The translations under genes and the position numbers were made by a program. Below the pieces are notes generated by a model, which was given only the letters and a program-made list of their open reading frames with translations, was not told the origin of the DNA and ran no database searches. This document shows, one piece after another, positions 188 through 15,921 of a stretch of DNA of 64,000 nt. The DNA comes from a virus (lineage: Duplodnaviria; Caudoviricetes): IMG/VR virus record IMGVR_UViG_3300002092_001784, positions 128,001 through 192,000 of that record; one strand, given 5' to 3'. Position 1 is the first letter of the stretch, and every line of letters begins with the position of its first letter.

Positions 188-1099
188 ATGAATGGTACAA
201 TTGTAATTTTCATAATGCCGTCCGAAGTAGAAGATTTGGCATTGACTCTGTATAACTTAAAACGATCTTCGATATTTCGTAACACTGATAATATTAAATT
301 GAAAGTTGATATTGGGGTATGTTTATCGGATGAAGTAACCGATTGGTCGGCATCAAAACTTTCACAAGACTATGTGAAAGGACGTGTGACTGAATTATGC
401 TTAAAGTATCTAAATTGGTGTGAATATGATTTGTTTTTTGAGTATGGTGCTGAGGTGTTAGGGTGTGATACGTTTCGTAAACGAAGTTGGAAATCGAATA
501 TAAATACTGATTTTTTCATATGGTTAGATTGTGATATGATATTCCCCGATTCAAGTTTACAGTGTATAGAAAATACATTTGAAACTATCAAATCAAACGG
601 ATATGATGATATGATTATCACACCACAAATAATAAAACATTGGGATTCATCTTGGAATATTATATCAAATAGTCTATATGCTAATCATACATTTGATGAT
701 AGGATGAAGTTAGATGTATATACAGAATGTATTTCACAAAATAGTAATTCTGGCTTCTATGTTACACAGTTGGATACTTTCAAATTCGCAGGTGGGTGGT
801 TTACATTGATTTCCAAATCTCTTTTAGATAAAATAGGAATACCTGATTCATTTGGGCATTATGGTGCATTGGATACATTTATTCAAATATGTGCTAGTAT
901 TATGAAACAAAATGGACATGCGGTATCGCAATATGTAATTATGGATTTGGTTGTGAGTGAGTTATACAATCGTAGATGTAATGAATTTATTTCAACGCAA
1001 TTTGTGAGTATTGGTGACAAGAATGAGTTCTCTAAGCCAACTAAAGATAATTTTACTATTGAGATACAAAACTTTAGGAAACGATGGTGTGATGAATAA
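188..1099 (+). CDS. Glycosyltransferase-like protein (GT-A fold)
   Basis: 303-aa ORF with hydrophobic strand plus DxD-like motif (FFIWLDCDMIFP) and GGWF...FGHYG..D segment. Confidence 0.6.
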   Translation: MNGTIVIFIMPSEVEDLALTLYNLKRSSIFRNTDNIKLKVDIGVCLSDEVTDWSASKLSQDYVKGRVTELCLKYLNWCEYDLFFEYGAEVLGCDTFRKRSWKSNINTDFFIWLDCDMIFPDSSLQCIENTFETIKSNGYDDMIITPQIIKHWDSSWNIISNSLYANHTFDDRMKLDVYTECISQNSNSGFYVTQLDTFKFAGGWFTLISKSLLDKIGIPDSFGHYGALDTFIQICASIMKQNGHAVSQYVIMDLVVSELYNRRCNEFISTQFVSIGDKNEFSKPTKDNFTIEIQNFRKRWCDE

Positions 1100-1490
1100 A
1101 AAGAAAAAGCCAGATTTGGTTGTATGGAGTGAAGAGCGTGGATATTATCAGCAGAGCCTTCCATACGGTACAAATACAGGTGCACCTGCAATTAGTATAG
1201 AAAATGTCCAAGGTTGGAAACAAACACAGGCATTGGAGGTTAATAAACTATTCAGTACAAAATATGATGAACTGAAGTCACAGATGATTAATCTGCTTGA
1301 TGAAGTGAGATGGAATGAGTTAGTATACTCGTCTGTTTTTAATTTTACTCCATTGATAGGTGAAACTTATTATTTATATGAGAAAGATGATGGTACTACC
1401 TTTTTATCATTGATTTCGCCAAATGAATGGGCACAAAAGTTTATAGGAGCAACAAAGGTAGACTCAACTAAAAAATGGATAAAGTTATGA
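1092..1490 (+). CDS. DUF2452-like protein
   Basis: Start reassigned to ATG 1092; PYGTNTGAPAI and F.PLIGETYYLY...FLSLISPNEW resemble the Bacteroidota DUF2452 family (from memory). Confidence 0.6.
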   Translation: MNKKKKPDLVVWSEERGYYQQSLPYGTNTGAPAISIENVQGWKQTQALEVNKLFSTKYDELKSQMINLLDEVRWNELVYSSVFNFTPLIGETYYLYEKDDGTTFLSLISPNEWAQKFIGATKVDSTKKWIKL

Positions 1491-2448: not shown

Positions 2449-2718
2449 ATGAAACGATTTCACGGAATGATGCCTCAAAATGAGGTTAAGATACATAAAA
2501 CTGTTAAAGTAGGTACACCACCTGTTACAGTTGTAATACAAGCTGGTGATAAGGGATGGACAATACTATATGCTGATCATTCTTCTGAATTTGAGGATGT
2601 TGAAGATAGTGCCGAAAACAATTACAATAAAGCATTCGATATTCTAAATCAACACGTTACTGATAACATAGAGTTGGATAAATTAAAAGAAAATACAAAA
2701 ATTGATGATCAAGAATAA
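2449..2718 (+). CDS. Hypothetical protein
   Basis: Operon-like spacing. Confidence 0.7.
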   Translation: MKRFHGMMPQNEVKIHKTVKVGTPPVTVVIQAGDKGWTILYADHSSEFEDVEDSAENNYNKAFDILNQHVTDNIELDKLKENTKIDDQE

Positions 2719-3157
2719 AACAATTGCTTTAATAGCACATGATGCTCGGAAAGCAGATATGGTAGAATGGGTAGACCATAACGCATCTACATTGATGAGA
2801 AATAAAATGGTATGTACTGGAACTACTGGAGCGTTGATAGAAACTGCACTAACAATACATGTGGGAGACGGTGATTATATTCCACCAATAATTAAAATGA
2901 AATCCGGTCCTATGGGTGGTGATGCACAAATTGCGGCTATGGTTGTTGAAGGTAAGGTTGATCTTTGTGTATTTCTAATTGATGATTTGACAGCAAACCC
3001 GCATGAAGCCGATATTCAGATGTTATTGAGGCAATGTAGGATACATAACATTCCTGTTGCATGTAACAGACATTCGGCAGACTTGATGATTACATCGGAT
3101 TTGTGGGGTACGAAATACAAACCAACAGAGCCAAGATATACTAAATTTAACAGATAA
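2705..3157 (+). CDS. mgsA: Methylglyoxal synthase
   Basis: IALIAHD..K, TGTTG, SGPMGGDAQI, D.L...PHEADI..L.R.C..HNIP.A.N motifs all intact. Confidence 0.93.
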   Translation: MIKNKTIALIAHDARKADMVEWVDHNASTLMRNKMVCTGTTGALIETALTIHVGDGDYIPPIIKMKSGPMGGDAQIAAMVVEGKVDLCVFLIDDLTANPHEADIQMLLRQCRIHNIPVACNRHSADLMITSDLWGTKYKPTEPRYTKFNR

Positions 3158-6360: not shown

Positions 6361-6924
6361 ATGTTAAACTATTTAATTATGGATTGGAAACGCGTATATT
6401 TAGAAATTATAGATAGAGCTCGGACTAGAGTTATACAAAAAGGAATATATAGGGAAACGCATCATATTGTTCCTATATGCATGGGTGGAGAAAACACAAA
6501 AGAAAATAAAGTAGAGTTAACATACAGAGAACACTTTATTTGCCACCGAATATTACATATTATTTTTCCAAAGAATAAAGAATTAGCATCGGCATTTCAT
6601 ATCAGTGCCTATGGGACAAACGCAAGAAAAACTCGTAAGAGTGGAGTGTTGTGGTGTCCTTCTTCACGTGCGCTTGAAGCTGCTCGTATAGCTAAAATCC
6701 ACGCTCGTACTGGTACGCATCATAGTGAAGAAACTAAAGCCAAAATGGCTGAAACTCACCGATTGAGAAAGGAAATGGGTACACCTCGAAAACCCAGCCC
6801 ACCACTTACTGAAGAAACTAAAGAGAAAATGCGGCAGGCCAAATTAGGAAAGAGCCGTGCACCGTTTACCGAAGAGCATAAAGCCAAATTGAGAGAAGCA
6901 CGGGCTAATAGAAAATCCAAGTAA
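6361..6924 (+). CDS. HNH homing endonuclease with NUMOD3 repeats
   Basis: ETHHIVP.CMGG.N...N.V.LT.REHF..H plus HSEETKAKM / TEETKEKMRQAKLGK / TEEHKAKL motifs. Confidence 0.88.
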   Translation: MLNYLIMDWKRVYLEIIDRARTRVIQKGIYRETHHIVPICMGGENTKENKVELTYREHFICHRILHIIFPKNKELASAFHISAYGTNARKTRKSGVLWCPSSRALEAARIAKIHARTGTHHSEETKAKMAETHRLRKEMGTPRKPSPPLTEETKEKMRQAKLGKSRAPFTEEHKAKLREARANRKSK

Positions 6925-7412
6925 ATATTCCATTAGTGTGTTATGTTAAACCGTTTTTGTAACTGATTGATTATCAGCACGTTGATAAATCAATACTATT
7001 TAACCTAATATAAGTTATAAGACACGGATTTAACATAATAATATCCGCACTGATACTCAATGAGTTAGAAGCCTTCTGCATGTGAATATACCGTAATCGT
7101 TTGTAAATGAATGGGTTAGCCCGCTTACGAATTGTTACGGTATTGTGCGTCAATCGGTTACGAAAGCCGGTATGAATAATACCTAACAGTATATAAATTA
7201 TGTTAAGTGAAGCAGATACCGACAATCGTATTATGTTAAACTGAAAGCCAATCAATAAAAATATTATGTTAATGGGGATATACATGCCGGTCGGACAAAA
7301 GATTTAACATTGGCTTAACATTATTTAACAGTTATTATTTGGAATGTCCGCATAAATGTAGTATATTTGAAATATCAGTTTGAGAGTTATTATTCATTAA
7401 AAAACAAAGACG

Positions 7413-7700
7413 ATGACAGCAAATGAGATGATGGAGTTACAGAGTGAGTTAAAGGCATGGTCCGAAAGAGAACGTTCGGTAGAAGAAATCGCAAGGATGG
7501 AAGCGGAGAGTGAAGAGTTCAGAATCATGCTGACCGAAGCGTTATCCCAGCCACCACTAACTCCGGATGCAGAGTTGGACTTGGCGATAGAGAGTTGGGG
7601 CTTATATTCACCCGAAGATTACGAATACTTTTATGTATTGGCAAAGAAGTTGGGCAGATATAATGAGGTAAGAAACCTCAGTTCGGCCTTATTTGAATAA
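7413..7700 (+). CDS. Hypothetical protein
   Basis: First gene after promoter at 7304-7349. Confidence 0.7.
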   Translation: MTANEMMELQSELKAWSERERSVEEIARMEAESEEFRIMLTEALSQPPLTPDAELDLAIESWGLYSPEDYEYFYVLAKKLGRYNEVRNLSSALFE

Positions 7701-7722: not shown

Positions 7723-7941
7723 ATGACATATACTGACAGATATGCGTTTTTAGTTAAATTCCTTAAAGATAACGATGCTCATACTAAATGGCAACACAAT
7801 CGTAACGTTAAGGATATTTTGGAAATAATAACAGATGAACCACAACATGCTTTCACAGCCGCCTTTAAGTGGTGGGATACTCCAGAAGGACATGATTATT
7901 GGGAAGCACTGTATTGGAAATGGATGGGTAATTTTAAGTAA
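7723..7941 (+). CDS. AFxWxxTPEG-family paralogue 1
   Basis: AFKWWDTPEGHDYW. Confidence 0.85.
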   Translation: MTYTDRYAFLVKFLKDNDAHTKWQHNRNVKDILEIITDEPQHAFTAAFKWWDTPEGHDYWEALYWKWMGNFK

Positions 7942-7944
7942 GAT

Positions 7945-8205
7945 ATGACGATAGACGAACGACAATTTATGTTTGAACAATTTCTTCAGAGTAAGGATTG
8001 TTATAATGTATTCATACAGAACTGTAAGAAGTATAAGCAGTCGTATGATAACGATATGAAATCATTGGTAATGTCAAGCTTACCATTCAGTTGTATTGAC
8101 CATGCTTTCACATGGAAAGCTACCGATGAAGGACATGATTATTGGAATGATTTGGCAAGAGAATGGTCAGAAAAATTTAAGGTATATGACAATAGAACAA
8201 CGTAA
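7945..8205 (+). CDS. AFxWxxTPEG-family paralogue 2
   Basis: AFTWKATDEGHDYW. Confidence 0.85.
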   Translation: MTIDERQFMFEQFLQSKDCYNVFIQNCKKYKQSYDNDMKSLVMSSLPFSCIDHAFTWKATDEGHDYWNDLAREWSEKFKVYDNRTT

Positions 8206-8437
8206 CGAGTTTGTCATCAATTGGTTACGACAAGAGGGGTTATATGATAGCTACCGTACCGCCTTTAGAGCCAGATGTGCTAAGGACAATGTAGGAGTGG
8301 ATAAAAAGTGGAATGATCTGATGTCGATGGATGAACCATCCGATATATTCTCAGCCGCATTTGCATTTGGTGATACGCCAGACGGGCATCTGATTTGGCC
8401 GGATGCTGCAATTCGATTCTGTAAACAATTTAAGTAG
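8186..8437 (+). CDS. AFxWxxTPEG-family paralogue 3
   Basis: Start reassigned to MTIEQR at 8186; AFAFGDTPDGHLIW. Confidence 0.85.
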   Translation: MTIEQRNEFVINWLRQEGLYDSYRTAFRARCAKDNVGVDKKWNDLMSMDEPSDIFSAAFAFGDTPDGHLIWPDAAIRFCKQFK

Positions 8438-8443
8438 AACACA

Positions 8444-8701
8444 ATGACGATAGAACAACGTAAAAAGTTTTTAATAGAGTTCCTAACCAACAGAGGGGCT
8501 TACACCGGATTTGTGGCAAACATAATAGCACATCATCCTAATGTGATTGTTGGTAGTTTTATTATAGATTTAGTAACTAGCAATAATCCACAGATCGCCA
8601 TAGGTGGTGCATTTCCGTGGGATGACTCACCCGAAGGTCCGACGTATTGGTCGGTATTAAGAGAAGAATTTGTAAATCAATTTAATCCGATAGAAGAATG
8701 A
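8444..8701 (+). CDS. AFxWxxTPEG-family paralogue 4
   Basis: AFPWDDSPEGPTYW. Confidence 0.85.
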   Translation: MTIEQRKKFLIEFLTNRGAYTGFVANIIAHHPNVIVGSFIIDLVTSNNPQIAIGGAFPWDDSPEGPTYWSVLREEFVNQFNPIEE

Positions 8702-8937
8702 CACCAGAACAACGTAAATTAGTATTGTATCGATTCCTGTCCGACCGTGATGCATTGGGGCATTGGAAACAGAATGTGGAGAATAACACAGACAGTATGT
8801 GGCAAAGTGCAGAATCAGCATTTGAGGATAACAATCATCAGAATTGTATAGGTAATGTATTTGGGTGGACTCAAACACCACAAGGTTCGAAGTATTGGGA
8901 AGGACTATATAATGAATGGCATCGTATGTTTGTGTAA
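8698..8937 (+). CDS. AFxWxxTPEG-family paralogue 5
   Basis: VFGWTQTPQGSKYW. Confidence 0.85.
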   Translation: MTPEQRKLVLYRFLSDRDALGHWKQNVENNTDSMWQSAESAFEDNNHQNCIGNVFGWTQTPQGSKYWEGLYNEWHRMFV

Positions 8938-9123
8938 GATTTAACAATTACTTAACATTGAATAGTTGGAATGTCCGAGCTTTTGTTGTATCTTTAGGTA
9001 TTGAGTTTTGAGAGTTACTAATTAAAAATTCGGTATTATGGGTTTAGTTGTGTTGATGTTCGCTGAGTTGTGCCTGTTAGGGCTGGTTACGTTTTTAGTG
9101 TGTTACCTAAGTGGATATGAGAT

Positions 9124-9390
9124 ATGGAAGAATTAGAAATATTTGATAAGGATGGGAAGGCATTGCAACTGGCCGATCTTATATACAGTTTTATTAAAGA
9201 TAAAGCAGAAGAAAATAAAATTGATATAGAAAATGTCTATGTTGGTGTAGATGTTGGATTCCCAAAAGGTAAGACACCTATTTGGATACATACAGTCGAA
9301 AGCGTTGATAACGGCTATGATGCAATAGAATTACACAATTTTGGTAAACCGTATATAGTTTCAAATTCATTAATACACAATAAGTTATGA
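9124..9390 (+). CDS. Hypothetical protein interrupting the paralogue array
   Basis: Unrelated to the array family; N-terminal ALQLADLIYS. Confidence 0.7.
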   Translation: MEELEIFDKDGKALQLADLIYSFIKDKAEENKIDIENVYVGVDVGFPKGKTPIWIHTVESVDNGYDAIELHNFGKPYIVSNSLIHNKL

Positions 9391-9632
9391 GAAAGATAAG
9401 TAATGAGAAGTTCTTAGTATGGCTAAACACACAGGGTGTATATGAACAGTTTTGCAGCAACTGCAAGCTATTGATAGCTGGTGGTACTGATTCTGTTGAA
9501 TGGTATATGAATACGCTACTTGAAGATTTCCGTAATCCAATCATGCCCGCTTTCGATTGGGATTCCTCAGTTGAGGGGTATGATCATTGGTGTGTTATTT
9601 CAGATAACTATGATGCCGAATTTAATCATTAA
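9387..9632 (+). CDS. AFxWxxTPEG-family paralogue 6
   Basis: AFDWDSSVEGYDHW. Confidence 0.85.
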   Translation: MRKISNEKFLVWLNTQGVYEQFCSNCKLLIAGGTDSVEWYMNTLLEDFRNPIMPAFDWDSSVEGYDHWCVISDNYDAEFNH

Positions 9633-9638
9633 TATAGT

Positions 9639-9878
9639 ATGACATATACTGAAAGACATACGTTTTTACTTAAATTCCTTCTCGATAACGATGCTCTTAC
9701 TCAATGGATATACAACCGTACACACATACCACTAAATGGTAAGTTTACAGAACTGTTGGATATTTTAGGCGATAATCCTAGTGATGCAATTTCAATGGCA
9801 TTTGACTGGTCACATACGGTAGAAGGGCATCAATATTGGGGAGAACTACATAGAAAATGGATGAGTAAATTTAAGTAA
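9639..9878 (+). CDS. AFxWxxTPEG-family paralogue 7
   Basis: AFDWSHTVEGHQYW; close to paralogue 1. Confidence 0.85.
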   Translation: MTYTERHTFLLKFLLDNDALTQWIYNRTHIPLNGKFTELLDILGDNPSDAISMAFDWSHTVEGHQYWGELHRKWMSKFK

Positions 9879-9881
9879 GCG

Positions 9882-10139
9882 ATGACAGCACAACAACAAC
9901 GACGATTGGAGATATTAAACAGTTTTTTGGACGAGCATAATTGTAAAGCCAAATTTTTTAAGTATCGTGATGACTACTATACTGGACTTAATTCGTATCA
10001 ATCATATTCGAGTATGGTAACTACCCATAATCCCGCTAATGTGTTTAGTACGGCATTTAGTTGGGCGGATACACCGGAAGGTACACAATTTTGGTCAGAT
10101 TTGGCAGACGAGTTCAAATCTAAATTTATAATACAATGA
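9882..10139 (+). CDS. AFxWxxTPEG-family paralogue 8
   Basis: AFSWADTPEGTQFW. Confidence 0.85.
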   Translation: MTAQQQRRLEILNSFLDEHNCKAKFFKYRDDYYTGLNSYQSYSSMVTTHNPANVFSTAFSWADTPEGTQFWSDLADEFKSKFIIQ

Positions 10140-10384
10140 CACTAGAAGAAAGAAAGCAGTACCTAATCAAGTTCCTATGTGATATGGGGTGCTATGGCCA
10201 ATTCCTATATAACTGTAAATACCATAAGCAAAAATCGTTAGATAACGATTTTGAATCGCTCGTTATGGTAAAGTATCCGTCAGATGCCATTAGCCATGCC
10301 TTTATATGGGGGGATACGGCAGAGGGACATTCATATTGGCAGGACTTGGCAGAGGAGTTTGAATCTAAATTTATACTACAATGA
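10136..10384 (+). CDS. AFxWxxTPEG-family paralogue 9
   Basis: AFIWGDTAEGHSYW. Confidence 0.85.
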   Translation: MTLEERKQYLIKFLCDMGCYGQFLYNCKYHKQKSLDNDFESLVMVKYPSDAISHAFIWGDTAEGHSYWQDLAEEFESKFILQ

Positions 10385-10626
10385 CGGTAGAGCAACGAAA
10401 AGAATATCTAATCAAGTTCCTATGTGATATGGGATGTTATGACCAATTCCTATATAACTGTAAACATCATAAGCAAGGATTCGATAACGATTTGGAATCG
10501 CTGGCGATGGTAGAGTATCCGTACAATGTCATTAGCCGTGCTTTCACATGGATGGATACGGTGGAGGGGCGTCGATATTGGGAAGCATTGGCAAATGAGT
10601 TCAAATCTAAATTTATAACAGAATGA
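10381..10626 (+). CDS. AFxWxxTPEG-family paralogue 10
   Basis: AFTWMDTVEGRRYW; recent duplicate of paralogue 9. Confidence 0.85.
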   Translation: MTVEQRKEYLIKFLCDMGCYDQFLYNCKHHKQGFDNDLESLAMVEYPYNVISRAFTWMDTVEGRRYWEALANEFKSKFITE

Positions 10627-10874
10627 CACCGGAACAACGTAAGGCCTTCACCATTAGATGGTTGAAGCAAGAGTTAGCCTATGATAAGTTTGAAGACAAT
10701 ATTAAAAGTTATTGTATACGCACTAATAGGCCAATCGATGAAGCGTGGGATGCGCTGATGGCAATGAATGAACCACGGGAAGTGTTTATGTCCGCATTTG
10801 TATTTATCAGCACCCCAGAGGGACAGGTCTATTGGGAAGATATAGCAATTCGATTTAGTAACCTATTCAAATAG
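10623..10874 (+). CDS. AFxWxxTPEG-family paralogue 11
   Basis: AFVFISTPEGQVYW; close to paralogue 3. Confidence 0.85.
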   Translation: MTPEQRKAFTIRWLKQELAYDKFEDNIKSYCIRTNRPIDEAWDALMAMNEPREVFMSAFVFISTPEGQVYWEDIAIRFSNLFK

Positions 10875-10879
10875 AACAT

Positions 10880-11116
10880 ATGACACCTGAACAACGAAGA
10901 CAACTTTTTTATAACTTTTTAATTGAAAACGATGCGTGGACCGCATGGTGGAACAATGTAAGTAAAGCCTCCACTATATGGTCAAAACCGGAAACTGTAT
11001 TTGACCAAAATGATTATAATAAATGTATATTTGATATGTTCGGACTAAAGACAACACCGGAAGGTGAAGATTATTGGTCTGATTTGGGACGAGCATGGAC
11101 GGATAAATTTAAGTAA
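10880..11116 (+). CDS. AFxWxxTPEG-family paralogue 12
   Basis: MFGLKTTPEGEDYW; close to paralogue 5. Confidence 0.85.
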   Translation: MTPEQRRQLFYNFLIENDAWTAWWNNVSKASTIWSKPETVFDQNDYNKCIFDMFGLKTTPEGEDYWSDLGRAWTDKFK

Positions 11117-11119
11117 GAT

Positions 11120-11386
11120 ATGACAGTAGAAGAAAGAGTTAAATACCTAAAGGAGTACCTGTATGACAACAGATTGTTGGACAGCTATTACGCTAATCTC
11201 ATAAAGGATAAAGAGTATTTGCACAACACACAAACAATAGATGAAAGACTCCATACCCTATGTAATACAGATACCCCAAGATCATGCTTCGTTAGGGCAT
11301 TCAGTTGGGAACGTTCGCCCGAAGGCTTTAGTTTCTGGTTTAAGGTATCACAGGCCTTCGCAGAACGTCTAATCTATACACGATAG
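11120..11386 (+). CDS. AFxWxxTPEG-family paralogue 13
   Basis: AFSWERSPEGFSFW. Confidence 0.85.
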   Translation: MTVEERVKYLKEYLYDNRLLDSYYANLIKDKEYLHNTQTIDERLHTLCNTDTPRSCFVRAFSWERSPEGFSFWFKVSQAFAERLIYTR

Positions 11387-11460
11387 CTAGAACTTCTAAC
11401 TTTTTAGAATCCTATAATCCTATAACTTCTACACTAGCTAAATTGGAAAAAGCTAAAAAC

Positions 11461-11720
11461 GGTGCCTGACATTTTGTCAGGTGCCGGGCACTGGTTTCTT
11501 GGAACTGGAAAAAGTTCGAGCGGGCGGGGGGAGCGCTGACTCGTTTCCGCCCCGAGCCCGGTTTTTCTCCCTAGGAGAAAGACATACTAACTTCCAATGA
11601 TTGGGACGAGCCTATCATTTGATAGTTGTCATATTGATAGTTGTCATATTGATATGTTTGTTTGGATAGCGTTTTTATAGATAGCTCGGCCCCAATCGTT
11701 ACAATCGTTACAATCGTACT
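11461..11720. repeat. Non-coding island of GC-rich hairpins, palindromes and short tandem repeats
   Basis: CCTGACA-TTT-TGTCAGG; GTGCCGGGCAC; CGGGC...GCCCG stem 11521-11560; TTTCTCC-CTA-GGAGAAA; 15-bp tandem at 11621; 9-bp tandem at 11693. Confidence 0.8.
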
Positions 11721-11783
11721 GAAATTAAATAAAATTATTCAACTTCGATATTTATATAAACATTAACCATTTAACATACTATT

Positions 11784-15372: not shown

Positions 15373-15921
15373 ATGGGAGAGAGAATAGAAGGGTTTTGGG
15401 TTATGCGAACACCATTATATGCGGGTGGATTGCAAGACCTAATCGATTGGATGGGTACATACGGACAGACATCCGATATGAGAATGATTGAAATTGGAAG
15501 TTATGTTGGGGAAAGTACGGTTATATTTGCGGACAGTTTTAGTCAAGTAATTTCGATAGACCCGTATATGGATAATTACGATCCAAACGATATAGCATGT
15601 AAATGTTGGCCATTTAGTATGGTATACAATCAATTCCTATGCAATACATTACTATACCAAAATATTAAATCCATACGATTAACATCTGATGATGCGGTTG
15701 GGATTCTTGCTTTGCAACAGTGGGATATGGTGTATATCGATGGAGTACATACCTACGAAGCCGTTTCTAAAGATATTCAAAATTATAGGAAATTGATTAG
15801 ACCCGGTGGTTTTATAGCAGGACATGATTATACTTGGGAAGGGGTTAAAAGGGCAGTAGATGAGAATCTAACGGTATTGGAAACATTCAAAGATACCAGT
15901 TGGATAGCAAGAGTAGACTAA
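15373..15921 (+). CDS. Class I SAM-dependent methyltransferase (Methyltransf_24-like)
   Basis: IEIGSYVGES, DMVYIDGVHTYEAV..DI, PGGFIAGHDY. Confidence 0.85.
   Translation: MGERIEGFWVMRTPLYAGGLQDLIDWMGTYGQTSDMRMIEIGSYVGESTVIFADSFSQVISIDPYMDNYDPNDIACKCWPFSMVYNQFLCNTLLYQNIKSIRLTSDDAVGILALQQWDMVYIDGVHTYEAVSKDIQNYRKLIRPGGFIAGHDYTWEGVKRAVDENLTVLETFKDTSWIARVD

Follow-up and report, generated by a model that had tools for sequence, protein, structure and literature searches.

Thirteen diverged copies of a widespread, uncharacterised phage domain form a tandem array in a freshwater jumbo phage

Tandem multiplication of a single viral gene is described from several settings. In jumbo phages and giant viruses, paralogue expansions place many diverged copies side by side in the non-structural part of the genome, with a content that varies among relatives, and in genomic accordions of the poxvirus type one viral gene is multiplied in tandem as well. 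Phage anti-defence and sponge proteins such as Tad3 (Pfam PF25185) offer a further comparison, being small and soluble, encoded in accessory regions under host-type promoters, fast-evolving and variable between relatives; to our knowledge, the list of counter-defence or takeover proteins for Bacteroidota phages is very short. The locus described here shares features with all of these. It lies in the IMG/VR virus record IMGVR_UViG_3300002092_001784, a phage genome of 266,153 bp that CheckV rates as complete, and was analysed within bases 128,001–192,000 of that record (64,000 nucleotides, in the following called the window, to which positions refer unless stated otherwise). From 7723 to 11386, the + strand carries 13 intact paralogous genes for proteins of 72–88 amino acids (aa), named c1 to c13 (Table 1). 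Judged by sequence, this array is a tandem paralogue expansion of an uncharacterised phage domain.

The 13 copies are 15–69% identical in pairs and can be aligned over their whole length; column identity averages 40%, and M1, L14, F, G and W are invariant. They share the pattern MTxEQR...FL...N...AFxWxxTPEGxxYWxxL...F, consist of aromatic residues to 13–21% and are mildly acidic, with isoelectric points (pI) of 4.3–6.7. When a profile of the copies was run against the whole genome, it found exactly 13 places, all within the array, at E-values of 4e-23 to 6e-34 and with no internal stops; no further family copy was detected by this search in the 266,153 bp. Within the family, neighbouring genes overlap by ATGA at four junctions and by 20 nt at one, and at six more they are separated by 3–6 nt; a fifth ATGA overlap links an unrelated 88-aa open reading frame (ORF) to c6. 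Between c5 and c6, the array is interrupted by 449 nt, where a second promoter, a hydrophobic ORF of 32 codons and this 88-aa ORF are located. A first reading of the window, made from the letters and a list of ORFs and called the sequence-only reading below, had noticed 13 small ORFs with a common motif, all in intact frames and many translationally coupled. On each of these points our analysis agrees with it, as every ORF was recovered in place, the alignment covers the full length and the spacing of the genes is that of coupled frames.

The same reading had considered the family not assignable, which does not hold. The copies match four PHROGs families (phrog_16354, phrog_25460, phrog_10949 and phrog_20568), all annotated as "unknown function". 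At E ≤ 0.01, 8 of the first 10 copies gave a PHROG match, with a best E of 5.1e-8, and phrog_16354 recognises 37 of the 58 relatives in our alignment at E ≤ 1e-3. Since the matches cover mainly the C-terminal AFxWxxTxEGxxYW part, we regard the copies as distant members of these PHROGs. The profile search that the sequence-only reading had proposed thus leads to phage families of unknown function and not to a well-characterised domain. In Pfam, neither the copies nor any of the 58 aligned relatives reached a gathering threshold; NCBIfam gave no match at E ≤ 0.1, and profile searches against PDB sequences ended at noise level with a best E of 0.64–1.3. Rows for Anp1, DUF6019, Carb_bind, an APOBEC4-like family and SH3_15 were below cut-off and were set aside as noise. 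Among named phage records, blastn of the array region and tblastn of c8 and of one relative yielded no match, and in the full-text library searched we found no paper on these PHROG numbers, on the motif strings or on jumbo-phage paralogue arrays.

The domain is by no means confined to this phage. When 1.84 billion cluster representatives were searched exhaustively with a profile, 5,487 proteins matched at E ≤ 1e-3, of which 230 reached E ≤ 1e-10. We re-scanned the best 150 of the 5,487 locally, together with three copies from the window: 49 of these 153 proteins contain one domain, 64 contain two, and three to seven domains are found in the other 40. The highest count in the profile search was nine, in a single protein of 964 aa. 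In multi-repeat relatives, the domains are joined by long and variable linkers, which are often acidic or of low complexity, and the non-domain parts of multi-domain relatives gave no Pfam match. Loci in IMG/VR were collected with a degenerate DNA pattern for FxWxxTxEGxxYW, and 79 of the 80 loci obtained contain a true match to the hidden Markov model (HMM) of the family. Because 65 of the 79 carry one family gene only (two genes in 10 loci, three in 3 and five hits in 1), the 13 copies described here are exceptional. Protein-pattern searches of IMG/VR that started from a single copy or from a five-sequence alignment retrieved no relatives.

Neighbours of the family in these other phages include a primase-helicase, SNF2, DnaB helicases, DNA polymerase A, a DNA methylase, VRR-NUC, a helix-turn-helix protein and the terminase, and in a 48-kb phage a five-repeat member is flanked by replication genes. 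The most frequent neighbour is shared by just 6 of the 79 loci, and those 6 seem to come from one related phage group, sharing other neighbour clusters too. With the same DNA pattern, 52 true matches were obtained in species-representative prokaryote assemblies. Most are Bacteroidota metagenome-assembled genomes (MAGs), the other carriers being Proteobacteria, Firmicutes, Patescibacteria, Acidobacteriota, Bdellovibrionota and one archaeal MAG; these matches may be prophages or mis-binned phage contigs. Furthermore, tblastn of a five-repeat member gave only three weak matches (E 7e-5 to 2e-4), to LR756501.1/LR756503.1, a 735-kb uncultured phage, and to MG945453.1 (Microviridae sp., 5.8 kb), which suggests that the domain occurs in phage genomes of the largest as well as of the smallest size. 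Taken from these searches, the family is catalogued, albeit as of unknown function, and is very widespread and largely phage-borne.

AlphaFold2, supplied with a 58-sequence alignment, models c9 with a predicted local distance difference test score (pLDDT) of 92.5 and a predicted template modelling score (pTM) of 0.80. The model consists of five helices (residues 3–16, 20–29, 39–43, 50–53 and 65–77). In the PDB, Foldseek obtained no hit at E ≤ 0.001, its best row having E 7.2, and VIA-align against 48,161 PDB chains reached best Z-scores of 4.5–4.8, the noise level for helical models. Haloacid dehalogenase (HAD) cap domains, bromodomains, HRDC and BrxC were all tied at this level. AFDB clusters and BFVD returned only uncharacterised proteins with template modelling (TM) scores of about 0.7, some of them from crAss-like phages, which are probably family members; feature searches of the ESM Atlas, where models of these proteins are poor, gave no usable match. 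Structure prediction with Foldseek, as suggested in the sequence-only reading, thus resulted in a confident helical model for which no match was found among solved structures, a result with which a distant relationship or a known fold would be compatible.

Across 299 non-redundant domains, a set that is partly biased in that some sequences were collected via the motif itself, the highly conserved columns are F10, F13, L14, F23, N26, I55, A58, F59, W61, T64, E66 and G67, followed by Y70, W71 (100%), I74, W78 and F82. On the predicted helices they are spaced i, i+3/4, i+7 and hence fall on one face. In the c9 model, T-P-E-G occupies the turn that leads into the last helix, and we take it to resemble a helix N-cap. 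Because of the helical core spacing and the position of T-P-E-G, the conserved motif is best read as a hydrophobic core plus cap. F10, F13, L14, F23, I55, F59, W61, Y70, W71, I74 and W78 would form the core, and T-P-E-G would be a turn or cap preceding the last helix. Columns 28–54, on the other hand, show almost no conservation and contain all length variation. The middle loop with its short helices (about residues 28–62) and the x positions of the motif would then constitute a fast-changing surface. An aromatic scaffold with a variable surface had been proposed in the sequence-only reading; the core spacing on one helix face and the variable, fast-evolving middle speak for it.

Identity pairs within the array recur in the same gene order, with c1, c2, c3 and c5 paired to c7, c9, c11 and c12, respectively (types A to D in Table 1). 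The pattern points to the ancient duplication of a whole block in which four or more types had already diverged; the duplication of c9/c10 came later. With 69% identity and a synonymous divergence (dS) of 0.60, c9/c10 is the youngest duplication, and dS between copies ranges from about 0.5 to saturated. Related phages are available as freshwater fragments of 0.6–2.6 kb. Their orthologues of c11 (78% identity), c13 (71%), c8 (62%) and c5 (54%) resemble these copies more than any paralogue within the array does; hence the copy types predate the related phages and have been kept individually. The content of the array differs among these relatives. In L210 a c11-like gene is directly followed by a c13-like gene, without c12; in another relative the array ends after a c8-like gene and one unmatched member, and in a third the family genes adjoin homologues of window genes at 16.4–17.1 kb. 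A fourth relative, seen on short Logan contigs, has a type-C and a type-B copy fused into one protein of 163 aa, whose two-domain AlphaFold2 model (pLDDT 92.6, pTM 0.71) hints that the two domains pack together.

This phage itself was assembled from many freshwater metagenomes with 99.4–100% identity among assemblies. Seven independent assemblies from different samples contain the same array wherever the contigs are long enough, again at 99.4–100% identity. Four freshwater DNA runs among the public runs contain the full stretch and a fifth a small part of it; no RNA run with this stretch is among the public runs listed. Copy-number variation was not found across the seven assemblies, and content differs only among the more distant relatives. 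The accordion-style expansion that had been proposed from sequence is therefore not borne out by copies that are 15–69% identical, with dS of about 0.5 to saturated, that are older than the split from the relatives and that stand in the same array in all seven assemblies. As far as these comparisons reach, the array holds an old and fixed family, with no accordion at work.

Ratios of non-synonymous to synonymous divergence (dN/dS) among paralogues are 0.30 for c9/c10 and 0.65 for c1/c7, older pairs being saturated. For orthologues we obtained 0.93 (c11), 0.56 (c13), 0.61 (c8) and 0.40 (c5), compared with 0.14, 0.20 and 0.32 for three neighbouring non-family genes that served as controls; these controls come from the L211 and L213 contigs with the c8-like and c5-like genes, and no such gene is available on the L210 contig, which carries the c11 and c13 orthologues. 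Within c11, residues 28–62 show 15 non-synonymous versus 1 synonymous codon changes (omega 1.24), and residues 1–27 plus 63–83 show 3 non-synonymous and 2 synonymous ones. On these counts, fast protein evolution is focused on the middle region. Diversifying selection on this region is compatible with the data and not proved, as a ratio of 15:1 differs from neutrality with p ~0.07 (binomial estimate) and is not significant. The earlier proposals of selection that keeps many variants, and of dN/dS as its check, therefore stand in part: 13 frames are intact at high divergence, types are kept in relatives, orthologue values exceed those of the neighbours and the changes in c11 cluster in 28–62, but the diversifying component falls short of significance. 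Pseudogenisation in relatives, which the sequence-only reading had named as a sign of neutral drift, was not seen, all family ORFs being intact in every related-phage fragment examined.

The housekeeping-sigma consensus of Bacteroidota comprises a −33 element TTTG, a spacer of 19–21 nt and a −7 element TAnnTTTG. Exact matches to TTTG-N19-21-TAnnTTTG occur 48 times on the + strand and 9 times on the − strand of the whole genome; about 40 of the 48 carry the extended consensus TTTGG..GTAT(A/C)TTTG, and most matches lie on the + strand at genome positions 28–183 kb, the part that holds the array. Because dozens of exact matches are intergenic, the host of the phage is very probably a member of the Bacteroidota. 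The promoters fall into two classes of similar number. Class A, with about 20 members, has two or three TTAACA boxes 10–11 nt apart, followed by a TTTGGAA −33 and a TAnnTTTG −7 element, and many class A promoters share a transcribed leader, GTATTGAGTTTTGAGAG; class B is without TTAACA boxes and without this leader. Both array promoters belong to class A. The TTAACA boxes could be the binding site of a regulator and mark a temporal class.

Promoter 1 has three TTAACA boxes (7304–7309, 7315–7320 and 7325–7330, spaced 10–11 nt) upstream of an exact match with −33 TTTG at 7338–7341, a 20-nt spacer and the −7 element TATATTTG at 7362–7369, and its leader contains CAGTTTGAGAGTTATTA. Promoter 2 begins 3 nt past the stop codon of c5, with no terminator in between. 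Its TTAACA boxes at 8941–8946 and 8952–8957 precede a −33-like GTTG (8965–8968) and a −7-like TATCTTTA (8989–8996), and the leader GGTATTGAGTTTTGAGAGTT starts at 8997. As sequence matches, these elements predict two host-type promoters, from which the array would be transcribed as two operons. Two Bacteroidota-type promoters had been read from the sequence before, and both do match the consensus, one exactly and the other with two mismatches; the coordinates then assigned to the first (7304–7349) cover its boxes and −33 element, but end before the −7 element and were thus incomplete. Downstream of c13, the RNA fold of 11440–11590 has −64.8 kcal/mol (z = −4.5 versus shuffles), and the two hairpins in it are likely the end of the transcription unit. 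The interval 11440–11780, between the array and the next gene block, is ORF-free and structured, with short tandem repeats beyond the hairpins.

The array lies in the non-structural accessory part of this 266-kb freshwater jumbo phage, whose G+C content is about 31–39% and whose + strand holds nearly all ORFs. Situated 4 kb upstream of the array, a Tad3 homologue (E 9.6e-23 to PF25185; 80.7 bits with a cut-off of 27) is likely an anti-Thoeris gene, and the HNH/NUMOD3 gene directly upstream of the array's promoter region likely encodes a homing endonuclease. Apart from these two, the surroundings of the array are dark accessory genes by Pfam and PHROGs, and with the same databases we recognised no replication gene that adjoins the array and no toxin domain in the neighbouring ORFs scanned, such as would mark a polymorphic-toxin immunity array. 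The assignments of DUF2452, MGS and Methyltransf_24 are precomputed Pfam matches on identical genes in other assemblies of the phage. As to the non-family ORFs within the operons, the 95-aa and 88-aa ORFs have no Pfam or PHROG match and no similarity to one another. Both were rejected as extra family members with family HMM scores of about 0, despite a SPEDxxYF resemblance in the 95-aa ORF. The 32-codon ORF is called as a gene in the gene table of one assembly, overlaps the start of the 88-aa ORF and possibly encodes a small membrane peptide. The start of c3 is an ATG inside the listed TTG ORF.

Table 1. Features of the array and its surroundings, in window coordinates
Feature	Position	Strand	Basis
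DUF2452	1011-1490	+	Pfam
MGS (methylglyoxal synthase-like, weak)	2702-3157	+	Pfam
Tad3 homologue, 219 aa	3161-3820	+	residues 3-130 match Pfam PF25185 "Type I Thoeris inhibitor Tad3"
HNH-type endonuclease with NUMOD3 motifs	6361-6924	+	Pfam NUMOD3, E 5e-5
Promoter 1 and leader	7304-7412	+	consensus match
95-aa acidic ORF, first of operon 1, non-family	7413-7700	+	ORF list
c1, 72 aa, type A, 53% identical to c7	7723-7941	+	ORF, alignment, genome profile
c2, 86 aa, type B, 49% identical to c9, 43% to c10	7945-8205	+	ORF, alignment, genome profile
c3, 83 aa, type C, 45% identical to c11; 20-nt overlap with c2	8186-8437	+	
c4, 85 aa	8444-8701	+	ORF, alignment, genome profile
c5, 79 aa, type D, 38% identical to c12; ATGA overlap with c4	8698-8937	+	
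Promoter 2 and leader	8941-9028	+	same layout, two consensus mismatches
32-codon hydrophobic ORF, head of operon 2	9038-9136	+	read from sequence
88-aa ORF, non-family; ATGA overlap with c6	9124-9390	+	ORF list
c6, 81 aa, most divergent, most acidic (pI 4.3), without MTxEQR start	9387-9632	+	
c7, 79 aa, type A	9639-9878	+	ORF, alignment, genome profile
c8, 85 aa	9882-10139	+	ORF, alignment, genome profile
c9, 82 aa, type B; copy used for AlphaFold2 model	10136-10384	+	
c10, 81 aa, type B, 69% identical to c9	10381-10626	+	
c11, 83 aa, type C	10623-10874	+	ORF, alignment, genome profile
c12, 78 aa, type D	10880-11116	+	ORF, alignment, genome profile
c13, 88 aa	11120-11386	+	ORF, alignment, genome profile
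Two strong hairpins after c13; second GC-rich, then U run	11460-11570	+	RNA fold
Methyltransf_24	15373-15921	+	Pfam
Promoters in window	~7338, 8966, 17131, 17989, 31100, 32652, 36204, 40909, 55141	+	genome-wide consensus scan

What the array does can be discussed from these data with due caution. We tentatively favour the view that it is a set of stand-alone protein-binding modules for host takeover or counter-defence, although we would put this somewhat below an even chance. Each copy would then be a stand-alone, soluble and mildly acidic binding module that is made from the host-type promoters early in infection and binds, stoichiometrically, a different protein of the host or of a competing element. 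The bound target would be blocked or redirected, to the effect of host takeover or counter-defence, and the 13 types would represent 13 specificities that have long been kept. We favour this because the proteins are small, soluble and acidic, because they stand under host-type promoters and in an accessory location, and because they combine a fixed core and a fast surface with individually conserved types and a variable array content.

Several observations weigh against such binding modules. No homology of the copies to any characterised inhibitor was detected, and no conserved partner or target gene accompanies them. The scaffold occurs in phages of many phyla, with one tblastn match in a Microviridae record, so that a general role, i.e., binding something universal, fits at least as well as a set of host-specific inhibitors. 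The Tad3 homologue is 4 kb away among unrelated dark genes and provides weak guilt by association. Burial of the conserved residues is concluded from periodicity and not from coordinates. Finally, dN/dS values of 0.4–0.9 can mean relaxed constraint; the counts are small, and the 15:1 ratio is not significantly above neutral. A more specific version, in which a phage-wide mini-scaffold with a new helical fold and an evolvable middle provides 13 binders, each directed against a different host defence or housekeeping protein, we consider rather unlikely.

Of the alternatives, the one that survives best is that these are largely dispensable, weakly constrained accessory genes which persist by duplication and horizontal spread. 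It would account for dN/dS values of 0.4–0.93, well above those of the neighbouring genes, for the gain and loss of copies between relatives and for the lack of a recognisable function in Pfam, NCBIfam and PDB sequence searches. Against this, all 13 frames are intact at a synonymous divergence of about 0.5 to saturated, whereas a random 80-codon frame at about 36% GC stays open only in about 0.3% of cases, as estimated from base composition. Core positions are strictly kept in 299 domains, single-type orthologues are intact in every relative fragment examined and the family has thousands of members, and we hence judge dispensability unlikely.

Alternatively, the domain might serve phage DNA metabolism in general, as an adaptor or accessory domain that docks on a helicase, a primase, the tail of the single-stranded DNA-binding protein or the clamp, with the array as a lineage-specific expansion. 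In smaller phages, the family indeed sits inside replication and recombination modules, and its spread over phages of many phyla is what a universal partner would lead one to expect. However, no single neighbour recurs, the commonest neighbour cluster being found in the 6 of 79 loci that apparently belong to one phage group, and the array in this phage adjoins no recognisable replication gene. The acidic pI moreover argues against direct DNA binding, and a single partner would hardly account for thirteen diverged types. We therefore consider an adaptor role distinctly unlikely.

A sponge for a small molecule or nucleotide signal appears to us more improbable still. Here the invariant F/W/T/E/G/Y/W cluster would be a ligand pocket, and many copies would raise the binding capacity against a host immune signal. 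That all copies, and phages of many phyla, keep one and the same motif would be easier to understand with a single universal ligand than with many protein targets; the domain is multiplied both as genes and as intra-protein repeats, a gain expected for a stoichiometric sponge, and a homologue of the Thoeris inhibitor Tad3 is found nearby. On the other side, the conserved residues follow the helical spacing of a core and T-P-E fits a helix cap, and dosage would require neither divergence to 15–50% identity nor the separate keeping of each type in relatives.

Least probable, in our view, is a single hetero-oligomeric assembly in which coupled genes supply equimolar paralogous subunits that pack like the fused multi-repeat relatives, since the ATGA overlaps and 3–6 nt gaps (translational coupling), the 2–9 domains per polypeptide in relatives and the packing hinted at by the pTM of 0.71 of the 163-aa type-C/type-B fusion are countered by linkers that rather resemble beads on a string than a fixed solenoid, by a single copy in 65 of 79 phage loci, by an array content that varies between close relatives, unexpected for a fixed complex, and by the fact that the pTM of a single model is weak evidence. 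A complex prediction of c10 with c11 scored 0.00; it was run without controls, allows no verdict and is not used as evidence here.

Most early and accessory genes of phages lack an assigned function, and among them the family is unusually tractable: it is large, its members are of about 80 aa, it is modelled with confidence and without a known fold match, and it evolves faster than its neighbours, with one genome offering 13 natural variants side by side for comparison. In case they act as inhibitors, the copies would extend the short list of counter-defence or takeover proteins of Bacteroidota phages and show one scaffold reused for many targets. Should the mini-scaffold with an evolvable middle prove true, the family would be a large untapped source of natural inhibitors, including new Bacteroidota anti-defence proteins; should the adaptor or the sponge, a function would be found for a domain that phages of many phyla carry. 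In either case, the family deserves a Pfam/DUF entry and a structure.

Compared with the systems mentioned at the outset, the array shares the traits listed there for phage anti-defence and sponge proteins, but the searches showed no sequence or fold similarity of its copies to any solved or Pfam-listed anti-defence protein. The entries of PHROGs 16354, 25460, 10949 and 20568 are split, unannotated and list single genes; we found no catalogue entry that includes the 13-gene array, the multi-repeat architecture or the predicted fold. The poxvirus-type accordion is a recent and reversible amplification, in contrast to an array with 15–69% identity between copies and constant copy number in seven assemblies. 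Jumbo-phage and giant-virus expansions resemble the array in layout; they are, however, lineage-specific, whereas the domain described here is found in thousands of phage protein clusters across many host phyla, usually as a single copy. Special to this phage is only the degree of expansion.

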